Numbered from the stretch's first letter, positions 6,426 through 34,945 are shown. The stretch is 64,000 bases of DNA from Occultella glacieicola (GCF_004353825.1 NZ_SMNA01000005.1:310001-374000), one strand, 5' to 3'. Notes: generated by a model not told the origin, from the letters alone. Numbers and translations: made by a program.

Positions 6426-7592
6426 TCAGGCCCGGATCTCGAGCACCCGGTTGAACGGGGTCTGGGCCACCGAGGTGAACCGGGTGAAGCCCGCCGCGGT
6501 GGCGACGTCCCGGATCCGGGCCGGGCCGGCCTGGGTGCCGAGGGCCAGACCGACATCCTGGGACAGGGACGCGGGCGTGCACAGCAGCGTGGAGAAGCCG
6601 TAGTACGCCCGGCCCACCGGGTTCAGGTTGTCCTCGACGTGGTCGCCGGCCATCGGCTCGACCACCATCCAGGTCCCGCCCGGCGCGAGGGCCTGCCGAA
6701 CCTGGGTGGCGGCGCCGACCGGGTCACCCATGTCGTGCAGGCAGTCGAACATCGTGATCAGGTCGAAGCCCGAGCCCGGGAGCGCCTGCGCGGGCGCCAC
6801 CTGGAAGTCCACCCGGTCGGCGACCCCCGCGTCCGCGGCCCGGCGCCGGGCGGTGGCGATCGAGGCCTCGTGGTAGTCGGAGCCGACGAACCGCGAGTTC
6901 GGGAACGCCTGGGCCATCAGCACGGTCGAGGCCCCGTGGCCGCAACCGACGTCCGCGACCAGGGCCCCTTCCTGCAGCTTCTCTACGACGCCGTCGAGGG
7001 CGGGCAGCCAGGAATCGATCAGGTTCGCGTTGTAGCTCGGACGGAAGAACCGCTCGCACCCGACGTGCACGTCGGTGACGTGCTCGTGCCAGCCGAAGCC
7101 GGACCCGTTGCGGGCCGCGTCGAGGATGTGGTCGACGTCGTGCACGGTGCCGAGCGCGATCTGGAAGAACCCGGGCAGGAACGCGGGGCTGTCCTCGACC
7201 GTGAGCGCGATGGCCTGCTCCGGCGGCAGGGTGTACCGGCCCGACGGCGGGTCGTAGGTCAGGTAGGCACCCGCGGCCTGGGCGTTCAGCCATTCGCGGG
7301 CGTACGGCTCCGCCGTCCCGGTACGGGCCGCGAGTTCGGCCGGCGTGCTGGGACCGTGCGCGGCCAGGTCGCGGTAGTAGCCGAGCTTGTCGCCTAGGAC
7401 GACCAGGGCGGCGTTCAGGGTGGCGCCGACCTCGTCGACCGCACGGAACACGAACGCCATCAGGGCGTCCATGTCGACGGCGGGGGGTGCCTCCGGCGGC
7501 GCGCTGGCAGCCGACTCGGGGGCGGTCGGCGGGGTGACGGCTGGCGTGCTCGCGGCCTGCTGGGTGCTCGGTGCGGATGTCTCGGTGCTCAT
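6426..7592 (-). CDS. Class I SAM-dependent methyltransferase with N-terminal winged helix (Rv2258c-like)
   Basis: LGDKLGYY...ELAARTG...YAREWLNAQAAG; DVGCGHG; FDCLHDMGDP; GGAGG RBS. Confidence 0.9.
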   Translation of the reverse strand: MSTETSAPSTQQAASTPAVTPPTAPESAASAPPEAPPAVDMDALMAFVFRAVDEVGATLNAALVVLGDKLGYYRDLAAHGPSTPAELAARTGTAEPYAREWLNAQAAGAYLTYDPPSGRYTLPPEQAIALTVEDSPAFLPGFFQIALGTVHDVDHILDAARNGSGFGWHEHVTDVHVGCERFFRPSYNANLIDSWLPALDGVVEKLQEGALVADVGCGHGASTVLMAQAFPNSRFVGSDYHEASIATARRRAADAGVADRVDFQVAPAQALPGSGFDLITMFDCLHDMGDPVGAATQVRQALAPGGTWMVVEPMAGDHVEDNLNPVGRAYYGFSTLLCTPASLSQDVGLALGTQAGPARIRDVATAAGFTRFTSVAQTPFNRVLEIRA

Positions 7593-7752: not shown

Positions 7753-7795
7753 GTGGTGTGATTCCGACGCACCGGGTGGCTCGCAACCGCACCAC
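7753..7795. repeat. Palindromic repeat family A, copy 1
   Basis: GTGGTGTGATTCCGA-cgcaccgggtggc-TCGCAACCGCACCAC. Confidence 0.8.
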
Positions 7796-7821
7796 AGCGG
7801 GTCAGGCATGGGCCGAGGGGA

Positions 7822-7905
7822 CCCACCCCGCTCCGCCCACCCCGCTCCACCCACCCCGCTCCGCCCACCCGGCTCCGCCCACCCCGCTCCGCCCACCCGG
7901 CCCCG
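7822..7905. repeat. Tandem repeat, 6 x 14 bp (CCCACCCCGCTCCG)
   Basis: Six consecutive units with 0-2 mismatches each. Confidence 0.9.
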
Positions 7906-7955
7906 TTCCCCCAGCGCACCGGGCCCACCGCTCCCCGCATGCGGCCCAGCCTGTT

Positions 7956-7996
7956 GTGGTGTGATTGCGAGGCACCCAGCACCTCGCAATCGCACC
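7956..7996. repeat. Palindromic repeat family A, copy 2
   Basis: GTGGTGTGATTGCGAGG-cacccagca-CCTCGCAATCGCACC. Confidence 0.8.
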
Positions 7997-8015
7997 GTTA
8001 GCGCTGAGCGGGGTC

Positions 8016-8966
8016 CTATGTGCAGCGCGGGCAAGGTTCGAGCTCGTCGGCCCAGCCGCGGTGGTGCAGGATCTCGGCGATCCACCGGGCGGTCCGGCAC
8101 GGCGTGGTGAAGGCCAGCCCGTACGTGACCCGCGCGGTCGGCGCCCCGGAGGCAGCCAGTTCGGCCAGGTCGCGGGCAGCGTCATCGTCACGTGCGGCGG
8201 CGTCGCCGTGGAAGGCCAGACCGTCGAGCTCCACCACAAGCCCGAACCGCGTGTACCTGACGTCCTGGTGGGTGCGGATCCCGAGCGACGAGCTCTCGTG
8301 CTGGCGACTCGCGCGCGGAAGCGCGTGGGCGCGCTCGACGTTGTCGCGATAGCCACGCTCGAGTACAGAGCACACGCCGTCGCGCAGGTCGTTGAGCATC
8401 GAGACGATCATCGTTCGCCCGGCAACACGTCGACGGCTGGCGAGCGCGACCAGGATCCGCTCCGGCGTGGTCCGGCGCGACTGTGCGACCCTGGCGAGCG
8501 TGGCGAAACCCGCGGCCACGTCCCCCGCGCGGATGTGCTTCGACATCTCGTCGATCGTCGCGTGCTCGGTCCGCACCCGCGGTGGCGCCCGATGCCACAG
8601 CACCCGTCGCTGGAGGTCGCTCATGCGGCGGACCTCCACGCCCTTCGGCAGCCGGAGAGTGCGGGCGCGTGCGATCGCGATCTGCACGTGCGCCGGAGCC
8701 GGACCGGGCAACGCGGAAGCGCCCGCCAACGCGGCCGGCCACGCCGTCAGCACCGCGGCCCACTCCCGCTGCCGCCGGGTCAGCGGGCCGGTGTGGTTCA
8801 CGAAGACGCCGGGATGGACGCGCCGGAGTTCGCGCCGCCGGAGCATCCGTTCGATGTCATGCAGCAGGGCACCCGCCTCGAGCAACTGCCACCGTGCGAC
8901 CACGCCGTCCTGCACCGAGAGCAGCTCCAATAGGGGCACGCGATCGAGCTCGAACCGTTCCGACAT
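8016..8966 (-). CDS. AbiEi-like N-terminal domain plus DUF559/Vsr-like endonuclease-fold protein
   Basis: QDGVVARWQL...RRVHPGVFVNHTGP N-terminus; SVLERGY and DVRYTRFGLVVELDGLAFH C-terminus. Confidence 0.8.
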   Translation of the reverse strand: MSERFELDRVPLLELLSVQDGVVARWQLLEAGALLHDIERMLRRRELRRVHPGVFVNHTGPLTRRQREWAAVLTAWPAALAGASALPGPAPAHVQIAIARARTLRLPKGVEVRRMSDLQRRVLWHRAPPRVRTEHATIDEMSKHIRAGDVAAGFATLARVAQSRRTTPERILVALASRRRVAGRTMIVSMLNDLRDGVCSVLERGYRDNVERAHALPRASRQHESSSLGIRTHQDVRYTRFGLVVELDGLAFHGDAAARDDDAARDLAELAASGAPTARVTYGLAFTTPCRTARWIAEILHHRGWADELEPCPRCT

Positions 8967-9018
8967 CGCGGCACGGTGTCACGCCTGTAGTAGCAGATGC
9001 CCGATCGCGCGCCCACCC

Positions 9019-9030
9019 CTGTGGACCGCC
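9019..9030 (-). promoter_or_regulatory. Upstream motif GGCGGTCCACAG (shared with 33842-33853)
   Basis: Identical 12-mer 52 nt upstream of the ATG at 8966, in the same orientation relative to the gene. Confidence 0.55.
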
Positions 9031-9079
9031 AGGCGTCGGAGCCACGCCTGTGCGGCACGGGTCAAGCGTCAGCGGGCGC

Positions 9080-9179
9080 TCACGGTCGCACACGCCAGGC
9101 GGCGAGCCCGGCGGGCTCACCCGCACACGCCCCGCCGCGAGCCCGGCCGGTCACCCGCACACGCCCCGCCGCGAGCGCC
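9080..9179. repeat. Degenerate tandem repeat, about 3 x 33-37 bp
   Basis: TCAC(C/G)...CGCACACGCC...GCGAGC recurs three times. Confidence 0.7.
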
Positions 9180-9218
9180 CCAGGATCGCCGCCCCGCAGC
9201 ACAGGTCGGAGCGTCAGC

Positions 9219-9259
9219 GATGTGATTCCGACGCACTGGGCACCTCGGAATCGCACCAC
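9219..9259. repeat. Palindromic repeat family A, copy 3
   Basis: GATGTGATTCCGA-cgcactgggcacc-TCGGAATCGCACCAC. Confidence 0.8.
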
Positions 9260-9348
9260 TGCGGCCCAGGCATGCGAGGGGACCACGCGAGGCGACCGCG
9301 CCCGCACGTTCCTTCCGCTCCGCGCTCGCCGCCCACCGGCCCACTGTT

Positions 9349-9389
9349 GAGGTGTGGTTCCGACGCACCGGGTACGTCGGAACCACATC
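9349..9389. repeat. Palindromic repeat family A, copy 4
   Basis: GAGGTGTGGTTCCGACG-caccgggta-CGTCGGAACCACATC. Confidence 0.8.
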
Positions 9390-9431: not shown

Positions 9432-12152
9432 GTGACGCTCCTCGGCAGGGCGGCCGAGCAGGAGACGGTGTCCCGCCTCCTGGCCTCGGCGCGCCTGGGC
9501 AGCGGAGGGGTGCTGACGATCATCGGCGAACCGGGCGTCGGCAAGACGTCGCTGCTCACCGGAGCGCTCGAGAGCCTGCCGCCAGGTGGCGTGCGCGTGC
9601 TTCGGGCGACGCCCGCGGAGTCCGAGGGGAATCTGCCGTTCGCTGCGCTGCACGCCCTGGTGCTGCCCGCGCTACCGCTTCTCGATGATATTCCGGCCCC
9701 GCAGGCACTGGCCCTCGGCACCGCGCTGAGCCTGCGGCACGGCGGCGAACCGGACCGGTTCGCGATCGGTGCCGCGACGCTGAGCCTGCTGAGCCGGTAT
9801 GCCGAGGATGGGCCGGTGGTTGTGGTGCTCGACGACGTGCAGTGGGCGGACCAACCCTCCGTCGACGCCTTCGCGTTCGCGGCGCGCCGGGTACACAACG
9901 ACCCGATCGCGATCCTGATCGCGGGGCGCAGCGCCGAACTGCCGGAACCGGTGCGGGGTATGCCCACGATCGAGCTCGGCGGCCTGTCCCCCGAGGCCGC
10001 GGAGAATCTGCTGGCCGAGGCGTTCGGCTCATCGGACTGCCGGCGCGACGTCGACGGGCTGTACCGTTCAACCGGCGGGAACCCCCTGGCCCTACTCGAG
10101 TTGGCCGGCGAGCCGGACCCGGGCGACGCCGCCGGCGCTGGCCTGCCGCGGACCCTGCCCGACCGACTGCAGCGCACCTTCGCCCGGCGGCTGGAGGCAC
10201 TCACCCCGGACGAGCGCACCGTCGCGATGGTGGCCGCGATGGCCGGCGACGACCTTCGGCTCACCCGCGCCGCCTGTGGCCGTCTCGGCGTGGACCCCGC
10301 CGGCCTGGACGGTGCGTCCGGAGCCGGCCTGATCGCCGTCGACGGCGCTCACGTGACCTTCCGGCACCCGCTCCTGCGGGCGGCCGCCTACGGCTCGGTG
10401 ACGCCCGACCTGCGGCGGCGGGCGCATCTCGCCCTGGCCGCGGAACTCGTCGGTGTGGACGCCGACCGCCACGCCTGGCACCTCGCGGCGGCCACGACCC
10501 ACCTCGACGAGCCGGTCGCCGCACTCCTCGCGGACCTCGGCGGCCGAGCCAGCGCGCGCACCGCGTTCACGGTCGCCGCGACGGCCTACGAACGGGCGGC
10601 GCGGCTGAGCCCGGACCCCGGCGACAGCCACGACCGGATGATCGCCGCCGCCCGCGCGGCCTGGGCCGGGGGCCAACGCGATCGGGCCCTGGCCCTGCTC
10701 GACGAGGTGGAGCCACCGAGCGGACCTGCGACCGCGCCCGGATCCGAGCTACGGGCCACTATCGCCGTGCGCTCCGGCTCGGCCCGCGAGGGCCTCGGTC
10801 TTCTCGAGCGCGCGGCCGAGCTCGCCGATCCCGACCAGCGGGTGCTGATCCTGGCGCAGGCGTGGCATGCCTGCATGTACCTCACCGACACCACCGCCAT
10901 GCGGCGGATCGACGCGCGGCTCGCCGCCGCCCTGCCGTTCGCGACGGACCCCGTGGCCGGCGCCGTCGGGCTGGCCGCGTCCGGAACCGCCGGAGTACTG
11001 CTCGGCCGGGACAGCAGGGCAGTGCTCTCCGACGCCGTGTCGCAGCTGGCCGACCACGTCGACCCGCTCGCGCATCCGGCCGCGCTTCCGTGGCTGCTGC
11101 TCGCGCCGCTGTTCCTGCGTGATGCCGACGCCGGAAGCGAGCTGCGCACCCTCGTGGACCGGGTGCGGGAGCGGGTCGGTGTGGGGGCGCTGCCGAACCT
11201 GCTCTTCCACGTGGCCCGCGACCAGGCGACCACGAACGCCTGGGACCGGGCGGCGGCCAACTACGACGAGGCGGCCCGGCTGGCCCGGGAGACCGGTCAG
11301 GGCGGCGAGCTGGCGATGTCGCTTGCGGGGCTGGCCTGCCTCGAGGCCCGCTCCGGTCGGGCCGCACAGTGCCGGGAGCACGCCGCGGACGCGCTGGCCC
11401 GCTGCCGGGAGCGATCGATCCGCTTCGGTGAGATCTGGTGCGAACTCGCCGTGGGCGAGCTGGCCCTGTCCGAGGGCAGGCCGGTCGAGGCCGCGCAACG
11501 GCTCGGTGGGGTCGCTGCCCGGCTCGATCAGGACCAGGTCGGCGACCCCGATCTGCATCCCGGGCCGGACCTGGTCGATGCCCTGCTGCGGACCGGCGCC
11601 GCCGACGCCGCGGCCGAGGTGACCGCGCGATTCACGGCCGCAGCGGCCGCGAGCGGGCGACCATGGACCCTCGCGCGGGCCGACCGGGCGCTCGGCCTGA
11701 TCGCGACCGACGAGGACTTCGAGACGCACTTCGCCTCCGCGCTGGCGCACCACCGGCACACCCGGGACGAGTTCGAGACGGCGCGGACCCAGCTGGCACT
11801 GGGGATGCGGCTGCGTCGGGCCGGGCGACGGGTCGACGCCCGCACCTCCCTGCGCGCCGCGCTGACGTCGTTCGACGAGCTGGGGGCGCGGCTCTGGGCG
11901 GCGAACGCCCGGACCGAGCTGGAGGCCACCGGCGAGCACGTGCGGCCGCGCGAAGCCGCGGGCCCCGGCGCCCTCACGCCGCAGGAACTTCAGGTGTGCC
12001 TCCTGCTCGCTGAGGGCCGGACCACCCGGGAGGCCGCGGCGGCCCTGTTCCTGAGCCCGAAGACGATCGAGTACCACCTGCGCAAGGCCTACACGAAGCT
12101 CGCGATCCACTCCCGGGACGAACTCGCCGTCGTCCTGAGCGACGTGGGCTGA
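9432..12152 (+). CDS. Large ATP-binding LuxR-family (LAL/STAND) transcriptional regulator
   Basis: GEPGVGKTSLL, VVLDDVQWAD, TGGNPLALLEL, FRHPLLR, C-terminal LTPQELQV...LFLSPKTIEYHLRKAYTKL. Confidence 0.93.
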   Translation: MTLLGRAAEQETVSRLLASARLGSGGVLTIIGEPGVGKTSLLTGALESLPPGGVRVLRATPAESEGNLPFAALHALVLPALPLLDDIPAPQALALGTALSLRHGGEPDRFAIGAATLSLLSRYAEDGPVVVVLDDVQWADQPSVDAFAFAARRVHNDPIAILIAGRSAELPEPVRGMPTIELGGLSPEAAENLLAEAFGSSDCRRDVDGLYRSTGGNPLALLELAGEPDPGDAAGAGLPRTLPDRLQRTFARRLEALTPDERTVAMVAAMAGDDLRLTRAACGRLGVDPAGLDGASGAGLIAVDGAHVTFRHPLLRAAAYGSVTPDLRRRAHLALAAELVGVDADRHAWHLAAATTHLDEPVAALLADLGGRASARTAFTVAATAYERAARLSPDPGDSHDRMIAAARAAWAGGQRDRALALLDEVEPPSGPATAPGSELRATIAVRSGSAREGLGLLERAAELADPDQRVLILAQAWHACMYLTDTTAMRRIDARLAAALPFATDPVAGAVGLAASGTAGVLLGRDSRAVLSDAVSQLADHVDPLAHPAALPWLLLAPLFLRDADAGSELRTLVDRVRERVGVGALPNLLFHVARDQATTNAWDRAAANYDEAARLARETGQGGELAMSLAGLACLEARSGRAAQCREHAADALARCRERSIRFGEIWCELAVGELALSEGRPVEAAQRLGGVAARLDQDQVGDPDLHPGPDLVDALLRTGAADAAAEVTARFTAAAAASGRPWTLARADRALGLIATDEDFETHFASALAHHRHTRDEFETARTQLALGMRLRRAGRRVDARTSLRAALTSFDELGARLWAANARTELEATGEHVRPREAAGPGALTPQELQVCLLLAEGRTTREAAAALFLSPKTIEYHLRKAYTKLAIHSRDELAVVLSDVG

Positions 12153-33650: not shown

Positions 33651-33689
33651 GCGAGAGTGCGGAAATGGCAACCACCACGGCGCCCTCAC
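33651..33689. repeat. Palindromic repeat family B, copy 1
   Basis: GCGAGAGTGCGGAAATGG-caa-CCACCACGGCGCCCTCAC. Confidence 0.7.
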
Positions 33690-33745
33690 CGGGTGGCGCG
33701 CCGGCACCTCGCCGCCCACCCCCGCCTGACCCGCACCCACCCTGC

Positions 33746-33784
33746 GCGAGCGTGCGGAAACGGCAACCATCACAGCACCCTCAC
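33746..33784. repeat. Palindromic repeat family B, copy 2
   Basis: GCGAGCGTGCGGAAACGG-caa-CCATCACAGCACCCTCAC. Confidence 0.7.
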
Positions 33785-33841
33785 GGCCGAGCATCACGCG
33801 CACGCGCGACGCAGTCGTCCACTCCCGTGTGCCCGATGCGG

Positions 33842-33853
33842 GGCGGTCCACAG
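33842..33853 (+). promoter_or_regulatory. Upstream motif GGCGGTCCACAG (shared with 9019-9030)
   Basis: Identical 12-mer 49 nt upstream of the ATG at 33903. Confidence 0.55.
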
Positions 33854-33902
33854 CCGGCGCCATGCTCGCGCGCCGGCTTCGCGAGCTTGCCACCCTGCTC
33901 GG

Positions 33903-34810
33903 ATGGTGCGACAGCCCGATCCGGACGTGCCCCCCGGGGTGCGACTCGGTGAACAGTTCTCCATCACCGAGGCGCGCGCACGCGGCTACACGAGGGGCCA
34001 GATCCGGCACCGTCGGGCGAGTGGGAAGTGGCAGAGCGTGGTCGGGAGGATCGTGCTGGACCGCACCCGCAGGGTCGATGACACCGAGCGCATCCGGGCG
34101 GCGGTCAGCACCTGGCCACGGGGGTGGTGGGGCTGCGGGCAGCCGCCGCGTGGTATGGGCTTCCGGTGGCGCCCGGTCCCCGGATCGAGGTGTACACCTC
34201 CGTGGCCAGGCGGCCGACGCGTCACCTGCAGCCGCTCCGCGGACGCCTTCCCGGGGCCGACATCGACTCCCGCGAGCGCCTCGGGCTTCGGGTCACGACC
34301 ATGAGGCGGACCATCCTGGACTGCCTGGCCCACCTGCCGCGCGGTGAGGCCGAACGCCTCTGGGCCTACGTGTCCAGCCGCTCCCTGCTCAGCCAGGCCC
34401 ACCTGCTGGAGGCGATCGCCGACCGCCGCGGGCATCGGGGAACCGGTCAGCTCCGGCACTTCGCCGACCTCGCGGGCCGCGGTGCCGCCAACCCGGCGGA
34501 GGTCCGCCTGCACGAGATCCTGCGGGCCGCGGGCCTGACCCAGTGGCGGGCGGGGGTGCCGGTCAAGACGCCGGACGGTCTGATCGTGGCGCGGCCGGAC
34601 GTCCTGTTCGAGCGCGAGAAGGTCGCGATCGAACTCGATGGCGCCCGAGCACACGGCCCGGACCAGTTCCAGTCGGACCGAGCGCGCCAGAACAGGTTGG
34701 TCGAGCTCGGCTACACCCCGCTGCACTTCACCTGGGCCGACCTCCGGGACCGGGCCGAGCAGGTCGTCGCGACCGTTCGTCGCACGCTCGCGCTCGCGCA
34801 GCCGGCGTGA
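33903..34810 (+). pseudogene. AbiEi-like/DUF559 endonuclease-fold protein, frameshifted at G5 run 34120-34124
   Basis: FSITEARARGYTRGQIRHRRASGKW...TWPRG in one frame; VVGLRAAAAWYGL...NPAEVRL...RPDVLF...IELDGARAH...DRARQNRL..LGYTPLHFTW in another; G6 restores the frame. Confidence 0.78.
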
Positions 34811-34831
34811 GAGTGCCGACGCGCGGGCGGG

Positions 34832-34871
34832 GTGAGCGTGCCGAAGTGGTCGCCACTTCAGCACTCTCGGC
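34832..34871. repeat. Palindromic repeat family B, copy 3
   Basis: GTGAGCGTGCCGAAGTGG-tcg-CCACTTCAGCACTCTCGGC. Confidence 0.85.
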
Positions 34872-34905
34872 ACCGGCGCGAGGGAGCCGCGCCCGCCTAC
34901 CCGGC

Positions 34906-34945
34906 GTGAGCGTGCCGAAGTGGTCGCCACTTCAGCACTCTCGGC
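34906..34945. repeat. Palindromic repeat family B, copy 4 (identical to copy 3)
   Basis: Exact 40-bp duplicate; half-copies at 34807-34819 and near 34948-34958. Confidence 0.85.

Follow-up and report, generated by a model that had tools for sequence, protein, structure and literature searches.

A nuclease-fold gene bracketed by its own palindromes in Occultella glacieicola: a likely repeat-plus-enzyme mobile system with a REPtron-like layout

To our knowledge, the only known partner enzymes of REP-like repeats are the HUH RAYTs, and the origin and spread of such repeats are debated. REPtrons are described as TnpA-REP/RAYT genes accompanied by their cognate REP, REPIN or BIME repeats (PMC8266576; PMC3116915). 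The locus that we analyse here, which lies in a 64,000-nucleotide stretch of Occultella glacieicola DNA (NZ_SMNA01000005.1:310001-374000, referred to as the window), resembles REPtrons as those accounts present them: an enzyme gene sits between its own palindromes, further copies are dispersed in intergenic regions, partly as inverted doublets, and one genome holds several private pairs of gene and repeat. It differs from them in that the enzyme is a predicted fusion of an AbiEi module to a Vsr-like domain and not a HUH Y1 tyrosine recombinase, that the palindromes have no GTAG foot and are fixed, odd-centred sites of ~47 bp with signs of double-strand reading, that the promoter carries a DnaA-box-like motif, that the hosts are Actinobacteria, and that the gene itself has occupied several loci.

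Two other described systems share components with this locus. Residues 3-195 of the protein have the predicted fold of the AbiE type IV antitoxin AbiEi/Rv2827c, and the palindromes consist of two ~23-bp inverted halves, much as the AbiEi operator is reported to have two 23-bp inverted repeats with a 3-bp spacer, to which two monomers bind (PMC7319586); here, however, the protein has an extra C-terminal nuclease domain, there is no AbiEii partner, and the sites lie on both sides of the gene and genome-wide. The EDxHD homing endonuclease I-Bth0305I, which is reported to act as a homodimer and to cut a pseudo-palindromic site in its middle, likewise joins a DNA-binding N-terminal part to a Vsr-like domain and has a long symmetric site (PMC3239194), but our gene lies in no intron or intein, uses a different binding module, and has intact sites that flank the gene and are not interrupted by it. 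The locus works like a REPtron in layout but is not one, and it is neither an AbiE toxin-antitoxin pair nor a homing endonuclease. DnaA boxes are known in transposon ends, for example those of IS50/Tn5; the likeness is a replication-initiator site inside a mobile unit, whereas here that site stands at a fixed, activator-like promoter distance and not in an end repeat.

We consider it likely that the locus belongs to an undescribed mobile system of repeats plus enzyme, comparable to REP/RAYT and built on an unrelated enzyme. The system is real and widespread, and it is undescribed as far as the searched literature goes (mostly open-access papers, in their main texts), among which no paper links the protein family to palindromes or to DnaA boxes. 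The genome that holds the window (G000; its congeners are G001-G003) presents dispersed palindrome families and no RAYT, and each of these palindrome families is linked to one member of an unexplained protein family that is very common in actinobacteria.

The locus and its encoded protein

An earlier note on this DNA had described a nuclease-fold gene with two imperfect hairpins on each side, short tandem repeats in the flanks, and a methyltransferase gene and a LuxR-ATPase gene as divergent neighbours, and all of these were found in place (Table 1). The four palindromes are imperfect, have a 39-bp core with a single central base (41 nt including two flanking bases) and are 80% alike (family D4). 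Judged from their flanks, palindromes 1 and 3 point one way and palindromes 2 and 4 the opposite way, so that an inverted doublet stands on each side of the gene; the doublet of palindromes 3 and 4 recurs, as the same module without the gene, at another locus in G001. A search with the full-length family-A pattern returned 11 copies in G000, 10 in G001, 17-18 in G002 and 7 in G003, 1-3 copies in three of 32 other genomes of the family and 0 in the remaining 29, and the reversed control pattern gave 0 copies in any genome. The palindromes had been called private; they are not private to the locus, since 7 of the 11 copies lie elsewhere in G000, but hardly any occur outside the genus. Solo sites of family A mostly hold one palindrome, and G001 has one gene-free doublet. 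The tandem repeats are present as described but look incidental: this is the only one of 13 family-A sites in G000 to carry them, and they occur at 5 of 31 clusters of a second palindrome family (family B, described below) versus 84 of 1009 control spacers, counts on which we rejected them as a signature of the system.

Table 1. Features of the cassette and its surroundings, in window coordinates
Feature	Position	Strand	Remarks
SAM methyltransferase gene	6426..7592	-	Left neighbour, outside cassette
Family-A palindrome 1	7755..7793, centre 7774	none	Outer, 3' side of gene; family signal to about +/-23
14-bp tandem repeat x5.5	7822..7898	+	Between palindromes 1 and 2; absent from G001 and G002; incidental
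Family-A palindrome 2	7958..7996	none	Inner, just past stop codon; flanks point the opposite way to those of palindromes 1 and 3
Nuclease-fold gene, 316 aa	8016..8966	-	AbiEi part, residues 3-195 (predicted winged HTH and AbiEi C-domain), fused to Vsr-like domain, residues 199-306
Putative -10 element of leaderless promoter	8973..8978	-	12-7 nt before ATG; A-11 and T-7 weakly conserved in homologues; inferred
DnaA-box-like motif CGGTCCACA on gene's strand	9020..9028	-	Begins 62 nt before start codon; weak match, position conserved in family
34-bp tandem repeat x2.6	9087..9176	+	Unrepeated in G001; incidental
Family-A palindrome 3	9219..9257	none	Inner, 5' side, upstream of promoter
Family-A palindrome 4	9351..9389	none	Outer, 5' side; inverted doublet with palindrome 3
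AAA-ATPase/LuxR regulator gene	9432..12152	+	Right neighbour, outside cassette

The 316-aa protein itself matches no Pfam family at E<=0.01 or at E<=1. Among 30 aligned homologues, AbiEi_4 (PF13338) was found in 26 and REase_MTES_1575 (PF18741), weakly, in 16, and PADLOC matches the window protein to AbiEi (E=1.2e-4). Neither the window protein nor 29 homologues exceed the Pfam cut-off for DUF559 (PF04480), for which the only match in G000 is a paralogue at a second locus of the window (locus B). The earlier assignment to AbiEi/DUF559 therefore stands for an AbiEi part plus a Vsr-like part, on the strength of homologues, PADLOC and predicted fold, but not for DUF559 as such, PF04480 not being matched by the protein. 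In a structure model (pLDDT 89.5), residues 3-195 align with AbiEi 6y8q (Foldseek E 1.6e-5; VIA Z 10.2, rmsd 3.5, 181 aligned). Residues 199-306 give middling matches to 3hrl (Z 6.6, rmsd 4.1, 81 aligned), to I-Bth0305I 3r3p (Z 5.9, rmsd 4.8, 83 aligned) and to Vsr 1cw0 (Z 5.0, rmsd 3.5, 85 aligned), scores that were taken from the full-length model and not from the domain folded alone; a sequence search of solved structures returned nothing relevant. The protein is thus predicted to be an AbiEi-fold DNA-binding module fused to a Vsr-like nuclease. Across 75 intact homologues, E203, D235, E246 and R265 are invariant (75/75), H253 is kept in 73 and D266 in 74, and D248 and D262 are near-invariant. 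By motif spacing, not superposition, D235, H253 and D262/D266 map to D51/H69/D97 of Vsr (the Vsr/EDxHD set described in PMC3239194), and the conserved E/D/H residues are a candidate catalytic set of the nuclease domain. The best named protein matches are from Occultella species (90-91% identical), which places the host among the Micrococcales actinobacteria. A homodimer prediction scored 0.56 against 0.43 for a single control, and we do not use it as evidence.

Palindrome geometry and pairing with the protein

Anchored on their centres, 153 of 174 detected palindromes are odd-centred. Within the close subfamily (132 palindromes), 97% of half-sites carry G at -16; the core resembles CACC-W-GGTG, positions -23 to -20 form a YTAR-like edge motif, and pairing weakens past about 22, for a total of about 47 bp in fixed geometry. 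There is no GTAG tetranucleotide at the palindrome foot; the centre-anchored profile instead has a degenerate YTAR-like motif at both ends. Mismatches on the gene's strand at positions 1-21 are equally often G-T (151) and A-C (160). The ~47-bp odd-centred geometry, which matches that of AbiEi operators, and this lack of G-T bias suggest that the palindromes are likely to be double-stranded binding sites and not single-stranded hairpins of the REP type. Folded as single-stranded DNA on the + strand and compared with shuffles, two of the four window copies have z values of 0.12 and -0.92 and the other two of -4.19 and -3.58, so that the hairpins of the earlier note are real as palindromes but two of the four fold poorly as such. 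A double-stranded site is likely to fit better than an RNA or single-stranded DNA hairpin, and single-stranded use on either strand is possible.

We set aside a reading of the palindromes as RNA terminators, there being no G-U bias on the gene's strand and copies lying upstream as well as downstream of the gene; Rfam gave no match. A link to Vsr through CCWGG/Dcm sites stays speculative: the centre is CCWGG in 42 of the 132 palindromes and in none of the window's own. We also note that at the 3' ends of the genes (L096-L175) many stop codons lie within the palindrome downstream: the distance to its centre is 14-16 nt at 22 of 63 loci, and at 19 of 63 it is 22-24 nt, which is the edge motif itself.

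Palindromes accompany homologues of the gene beyond the genus as well. From 110 homologue loci we dropped six (three duplicates, the window's own locus and two with short flanks), and 72 of the remaining 104 have a palindrome common to both flanks, as against 1 of 695 control genes of G000 (with naive ORF starts) and 5 of 300 swapped pairs of flanks; no palindrome pair was detected at the other 32. The claim that such hairpins are commoner beside these genes than elsewhere is thereby upheld. Each relative across the actinobacteria has its own palindrome: palindrome arms from one and the same locus agree at 84% (50 loci), those from loci whose proteins are more than 70% identical at 80-87%, and those from loci with protein identity below 60% at 32-37% (overall Mantel rho between protein and arm 0.19).

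The earlier note had proposed to test whether flanking repeats co-vary with the phylogeny of the protein; repeats and protein do co-vary, down to a single pair of positions. We compared residues with bases in 44 representatives of less than 68% identity, leaving out doubtful palindromes, duplicates and broken genes. Of 3720 residue-base tests, the highest score was that of residue 35 versus base 8 (z 12; the next was 7.4), residue 35 being the start of a predicted helix, 35-43, the recognition helix. Asp35 goes with C at +/-8 in 21 of 21 cases, while other residues go with G in 17 of 22, with C in 4 and with T in 1; similarly, Glu39 goes with G-5 in 11 of 11 cases and Arg39 with a base other than G in 16 of 18. 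Contacts of carboxylates with cytosine and of arginine with guanine are standard recognition chemistry. The prediction was fixed in advance and applied to 22 metagenome loci and 29 loci from a class-wide search, of which 48 have the N-terminus, 39 a palindrome and 26 are non-redundant. In this hold-out, Asp35 went with C in 7 of 8 cases (one had T) and other residues did so in 5 of 18 (Fisher p 0.009), Glu39 went with G-5 in 5 of 6, and Arg39 with a base other than G in 12 of 13. The states of residue 35 are scattered over the tree, and a phylogeny-aware test found five well-supported independent pairs, of which 4.6 agree on average and none ever disagrees (p 0.0625, too few pairs). The window protein has Leu35 and Glu39, and its eight half-sites have G at position 8 in 8 of 8 and at position 5 in 7 of 8. 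Tracking of base 8 by residue 35 on the hold-out loci supports cognate binding, and we consider it very probable that the protein binds its own palindrome.

Mobility, promoter control and alternative readings

The site between the methyltransferase and LuxR genes holds the gene in G001 and G002. In G003 the same site is 180 bp long and contains one chimeric palindrome with the left flank of palindrome 1 and the right flank of palindrome 4; no gene was found in G003, which keeps 7 family-A palindromes genome-wide. In the outgroups G034 and G010 the methyltransferase and LuxR genes are still paired, and both gene and palindrome are missing; the G010 LuxR protein is only 40% alike, which makes its orthology less sure. 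Empty-site alleles, which the earlier note had asked for, exist in two forms, with one palindrome and with none, and the simplest order of events would be insertion in the ancestor of the genus followed by collapse in G003.

Other remains of the gene lie elsewhere. At C18:76930-77194 of G000 (L209), a palindrome is followed by a promoter with a DnaA-like box (87% to that of the window) and, with the ORF missing, by a second palindrome; the two genes next to this relic are 26-28 kb apart in congeners. At C23:37404-38364 (L210) there is a frameshifted paralogue (75% at the amino acid level) with its own degenerate pair of variant palindromes, a copy absent from G001-G003, where the neighbouring gene is inverted. 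Relics of the 3' end of the gene stand beside a palindrome in three congeners, at a site that in G000 retains the palindrome alone, and G002 has a further relic of the gene. When 20 congener palindrome loci were mapped onto G000, some were shared and some absent. Comparison of these genomes shows that the gene itself has occupied several loci. At the polymorphic congener sites (C18, C23 and solos, in congeners ~85-90% alike), where divergence or rearrangement obscured the junctions, we saw neither a clean boundary of fixed position nor a target duplication such as a classical DDE insertion sequence with terminal inverted repeats would leave. In a quick, midpoint-rooted tree of 63 rows, both the window clade and a mycobacterial clade nest among Nocardioides rows, which suggests transfer of the gene between genera. 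At 40 loci, we scanned 80 of 149 extracted neighbouring ORFs; these are housekeeping genes that differ from locus to locus, and no partner recurs. A search of these 80 for nucleotidyltransferase toxins at E<=1e-12 found none, one ABC transporter matching AAA_21. The gene was found in 0 plasmid records and in one partial phage record.

The promoter of the gene carries a further conserved element. At 90 of 105 loci, the 150 nt upstream of the gene contain TCCACA on its own strand (in antisense at 7), as against 73 of 2951 control genes (2.5%), and the strict form TT[AGC]TCCACA occurs at 43 of 105 loci (control 4); the upstream motif is also present at 42 of 45 hold-out loci and in 7 of 9 distant locus-B relatives. 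At 52 of 69 loci its first base stands 59-63 nt ahead of the start codon, and the centre of the upstream palindrome lies 22-95 nt beyond it at 51 of 53, most often about 31. In G000 the motif forms a cluster between two ORFs that by eye resemble dnaA and dnaN, and it fits the DnaA box given as TTATNCACA in the published account (PMC4588119). We infer that DnaA may control the promoter, and a weak -10 signal suggests a leaderless transcript. By eye, no PafBC-type promoter motif was seen.

We put at roughly 0.6 the probability that the protein binds its own ~47-bp palindrome as double-stranded DNA, nicks it, and spreads the palindrome and, more rarely, the whole cassette. Taken by itself, it seems to us likely that the palindromes owe their spread to the protein. 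Two monomers would each occupy one ~23-bp half, with the winged-helix recognition helices reading +/-5 to 8; the AbiEi C-domain would run outward along the arm and bring the nuclease near the conserved YTAR-like edge (+/-20 to 23), the putative position of the nick. The leaderless promoter would be switched on by DnaA at about the time of replication. As the nicked site is repaired or replicated, single palindromes, inverted doublets or the whole unit would be copied, and the new copies would land at mostly convergent intergenic sites. Later recombination between palindromes may delete the gene and leave one chimeric palindrome, as in G003. The palindrome edge as the position of the cut is the part that we hold less firmly. 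Identity of the winged helix tracks arm positions 5-10 (rho 0.26), and identity of the C-domain and of the nuclease tracks arm positions 17-23 (rho 0.135-0.137, p 0.003), although these are two of 16 tests on kin that are not independent; this points weakly to a nuclease domain near the palindrome edge. In the published model of AbiEi, as far as it is described, the C-domains meet each other (PMC7319586), contrary to an outward placing of the nuclease. Covariation gave no support to the reverse arrangement, with the conserved centre read by the nuclease and the outer edge by the winged helix. Also counting against the preferred reading are the middling scores of the nuclease domain, the small number of pairs in the phylogeny-aware test and the one hold-out Asp with T, the overall Mantel rho of 0.19, the palindromes in G003 and G029 with no gene found, the 32 loci at which no palindrome pair was detected, the outcome of the plasmid and phage searches, and the lack of a clean junction at the polymorphic sites.

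It is unlikely, in our view, that the protein is instead a domesticated host factor, that is, a DnaA-controlled DNA-binding or repair protein for which the palindromes serve as landing sites in chromosome upkeep or regulation, the palindromes having spread by other means with the gene as a passive companion. The strong conservation of the DnaA-box-like promoter would fit such a role, as would the chromosomal location of the gene throughout, the age of many solo sites, which are common to congeners, and purifying selection. The dN/dS of the gene among congeners (0.21-0.27), however, is well above that of the neighbouring methyltransferase gene (0.03-0.10), and a host factor would be expected neither to be patchily present (21 of 35 genomes of the family) among changing neighbours nor to decay as often as it does (C18, C23, locus B). 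Each paralogue, moreover, has its private palindrome, and a search of G000 for RAYT/Y1 (PF01797) found none that might have spread the repeats.

A homing-type cycle earns still less of our confidence. A dimer would make a double-strand cut in the middle of a lone palindrome and repair from the gene-flanking palindromes would copy the cassette, lone palindromes being targets or footprints. This would draw on the fold match to I-Bth0305I and its central cut and on the conserved core, and it would account for the chimeric palindrome of G003 with the outer flanks of palindromes 1 and 4. But the recognition helix maps to +/-5 to 8, which leaves little room for central nuclease domains, a filled site keeps intact targets and would be recut, the outgroups have no palindrome to home into, and the many family-B copies (43, of which 24 are in doublets) would go unexplained. 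That the protein is an orphan AbiEi-type antitoxin or repressor, with palindromes that are only autoregulatory operators and a nuclease fused for another role such as defence, is very improbable: it would explain the AbiEi fold, the operator geometry and the palindrome that always lies upstream of the promoter, but that upstream copy leaves the -10 region free, another cognate copy follows the stop codon, and others are scattered over the genome, mostly between convergent genes (10 of 23 versus 163 of 1032). Moreover, no AbiEii (PF08843) was found in G000, and the scan of the 80 neighbours brought up no nucleotidyltransferase toxin.

Binding and nicking of the palindromes by the protein thus remains the reading that we prefer. 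The earlier proposal, of a REPtron-like layout around a different enzyme class whose nuclease recognises, spreads or is mobilised with its own hairpins, gains support from the cognate pairing, the empty site and the covariation; the likeness to REPtrons holds for the layout, but the repeats behave like double-stranded operators of the AbiEi type and not like REP single-stranded hairpins, and the gene moves, unlike RAYT. A wider picture, which we offer tentatively and at somewhat less than even odds, is that of a replication-timed class of mobile DNA in Actinobacteria, in which an antitoxin-derived module with a Vsr-like nuclease would mobilise its own gene and REP-like palindromes under a DnaA switch, with residues 35 and 39 specifying bases 8 and 5. 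With the residue-base rule and the DnaA-like box, the link between protein and palindrome can be tested directly. Should the protein prove to cut, its family would be a large natural collection of long-site nucleases whose targets are known; if the wider picture is true, there are thousands of such natural nucleases with matched targets and a simple, readable protein-DNA code.

Paralogues and other elements in the genome

The second locus of the window, locus B (33653-34942), holds a distant paralogue at about 33.9-34.81 kb on the + strand, frameshifted near 34.1 kb, with two family-B palindromes on each side (33653, 33748, 34834 and 34908) and a DnaA-like box at about 33844. The copy numbers of family B offer a natural experiment: G000 has 40-41 copies in one count and 43 in another, G003, where the gene is a relic, has 7-9, no gene was found in G002 (3 copies) or G001 (0 copies), and 32 other genomes have 0 copies. 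Of the 31 family-B clusters in G000, 12 are pairs. The locus-B cassette is absent from that site in G001-G003. G003 has different DNA there (C6:140171-142856), comprising an ORF that by eye resembles a sodium:alanine symporter and another ORF, which suggests that the site is an insertion hot spot.

Two more distant paralogues lie on C17 of G000, one (315930-316895) with its own palindrome pair and a DnaA-like box and the other (304413-305333) truncated and with one downstream palindrome; the palindromes of both have few or no dispersed copies. In another genus, two near-identical family-A palindromes ~1 kb apart bracket an unrelated small gene (G029:C1:415862-416933, L090), and in that genome, which has 3 family-A palindromes, no nuclease homologue was found.

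Lastly, we note a group of young, MITE-like elements of 340-420 bp, 94-99% alike, that occur in G000 only. There are full copies at C1:66205-66548, C11:48022-48401, C17:323668-324015, C19:107325-107666 and C20:378294-378714 and partial copies at C17:39784-40067 and C19:45182-45349. They have 12-bp terminal inverted repeats, with target duplications of 9 bp in two of the five full copies and of 7 bp in two more, and their central palindrome is of the variant type that flanks the C23 paralogue.
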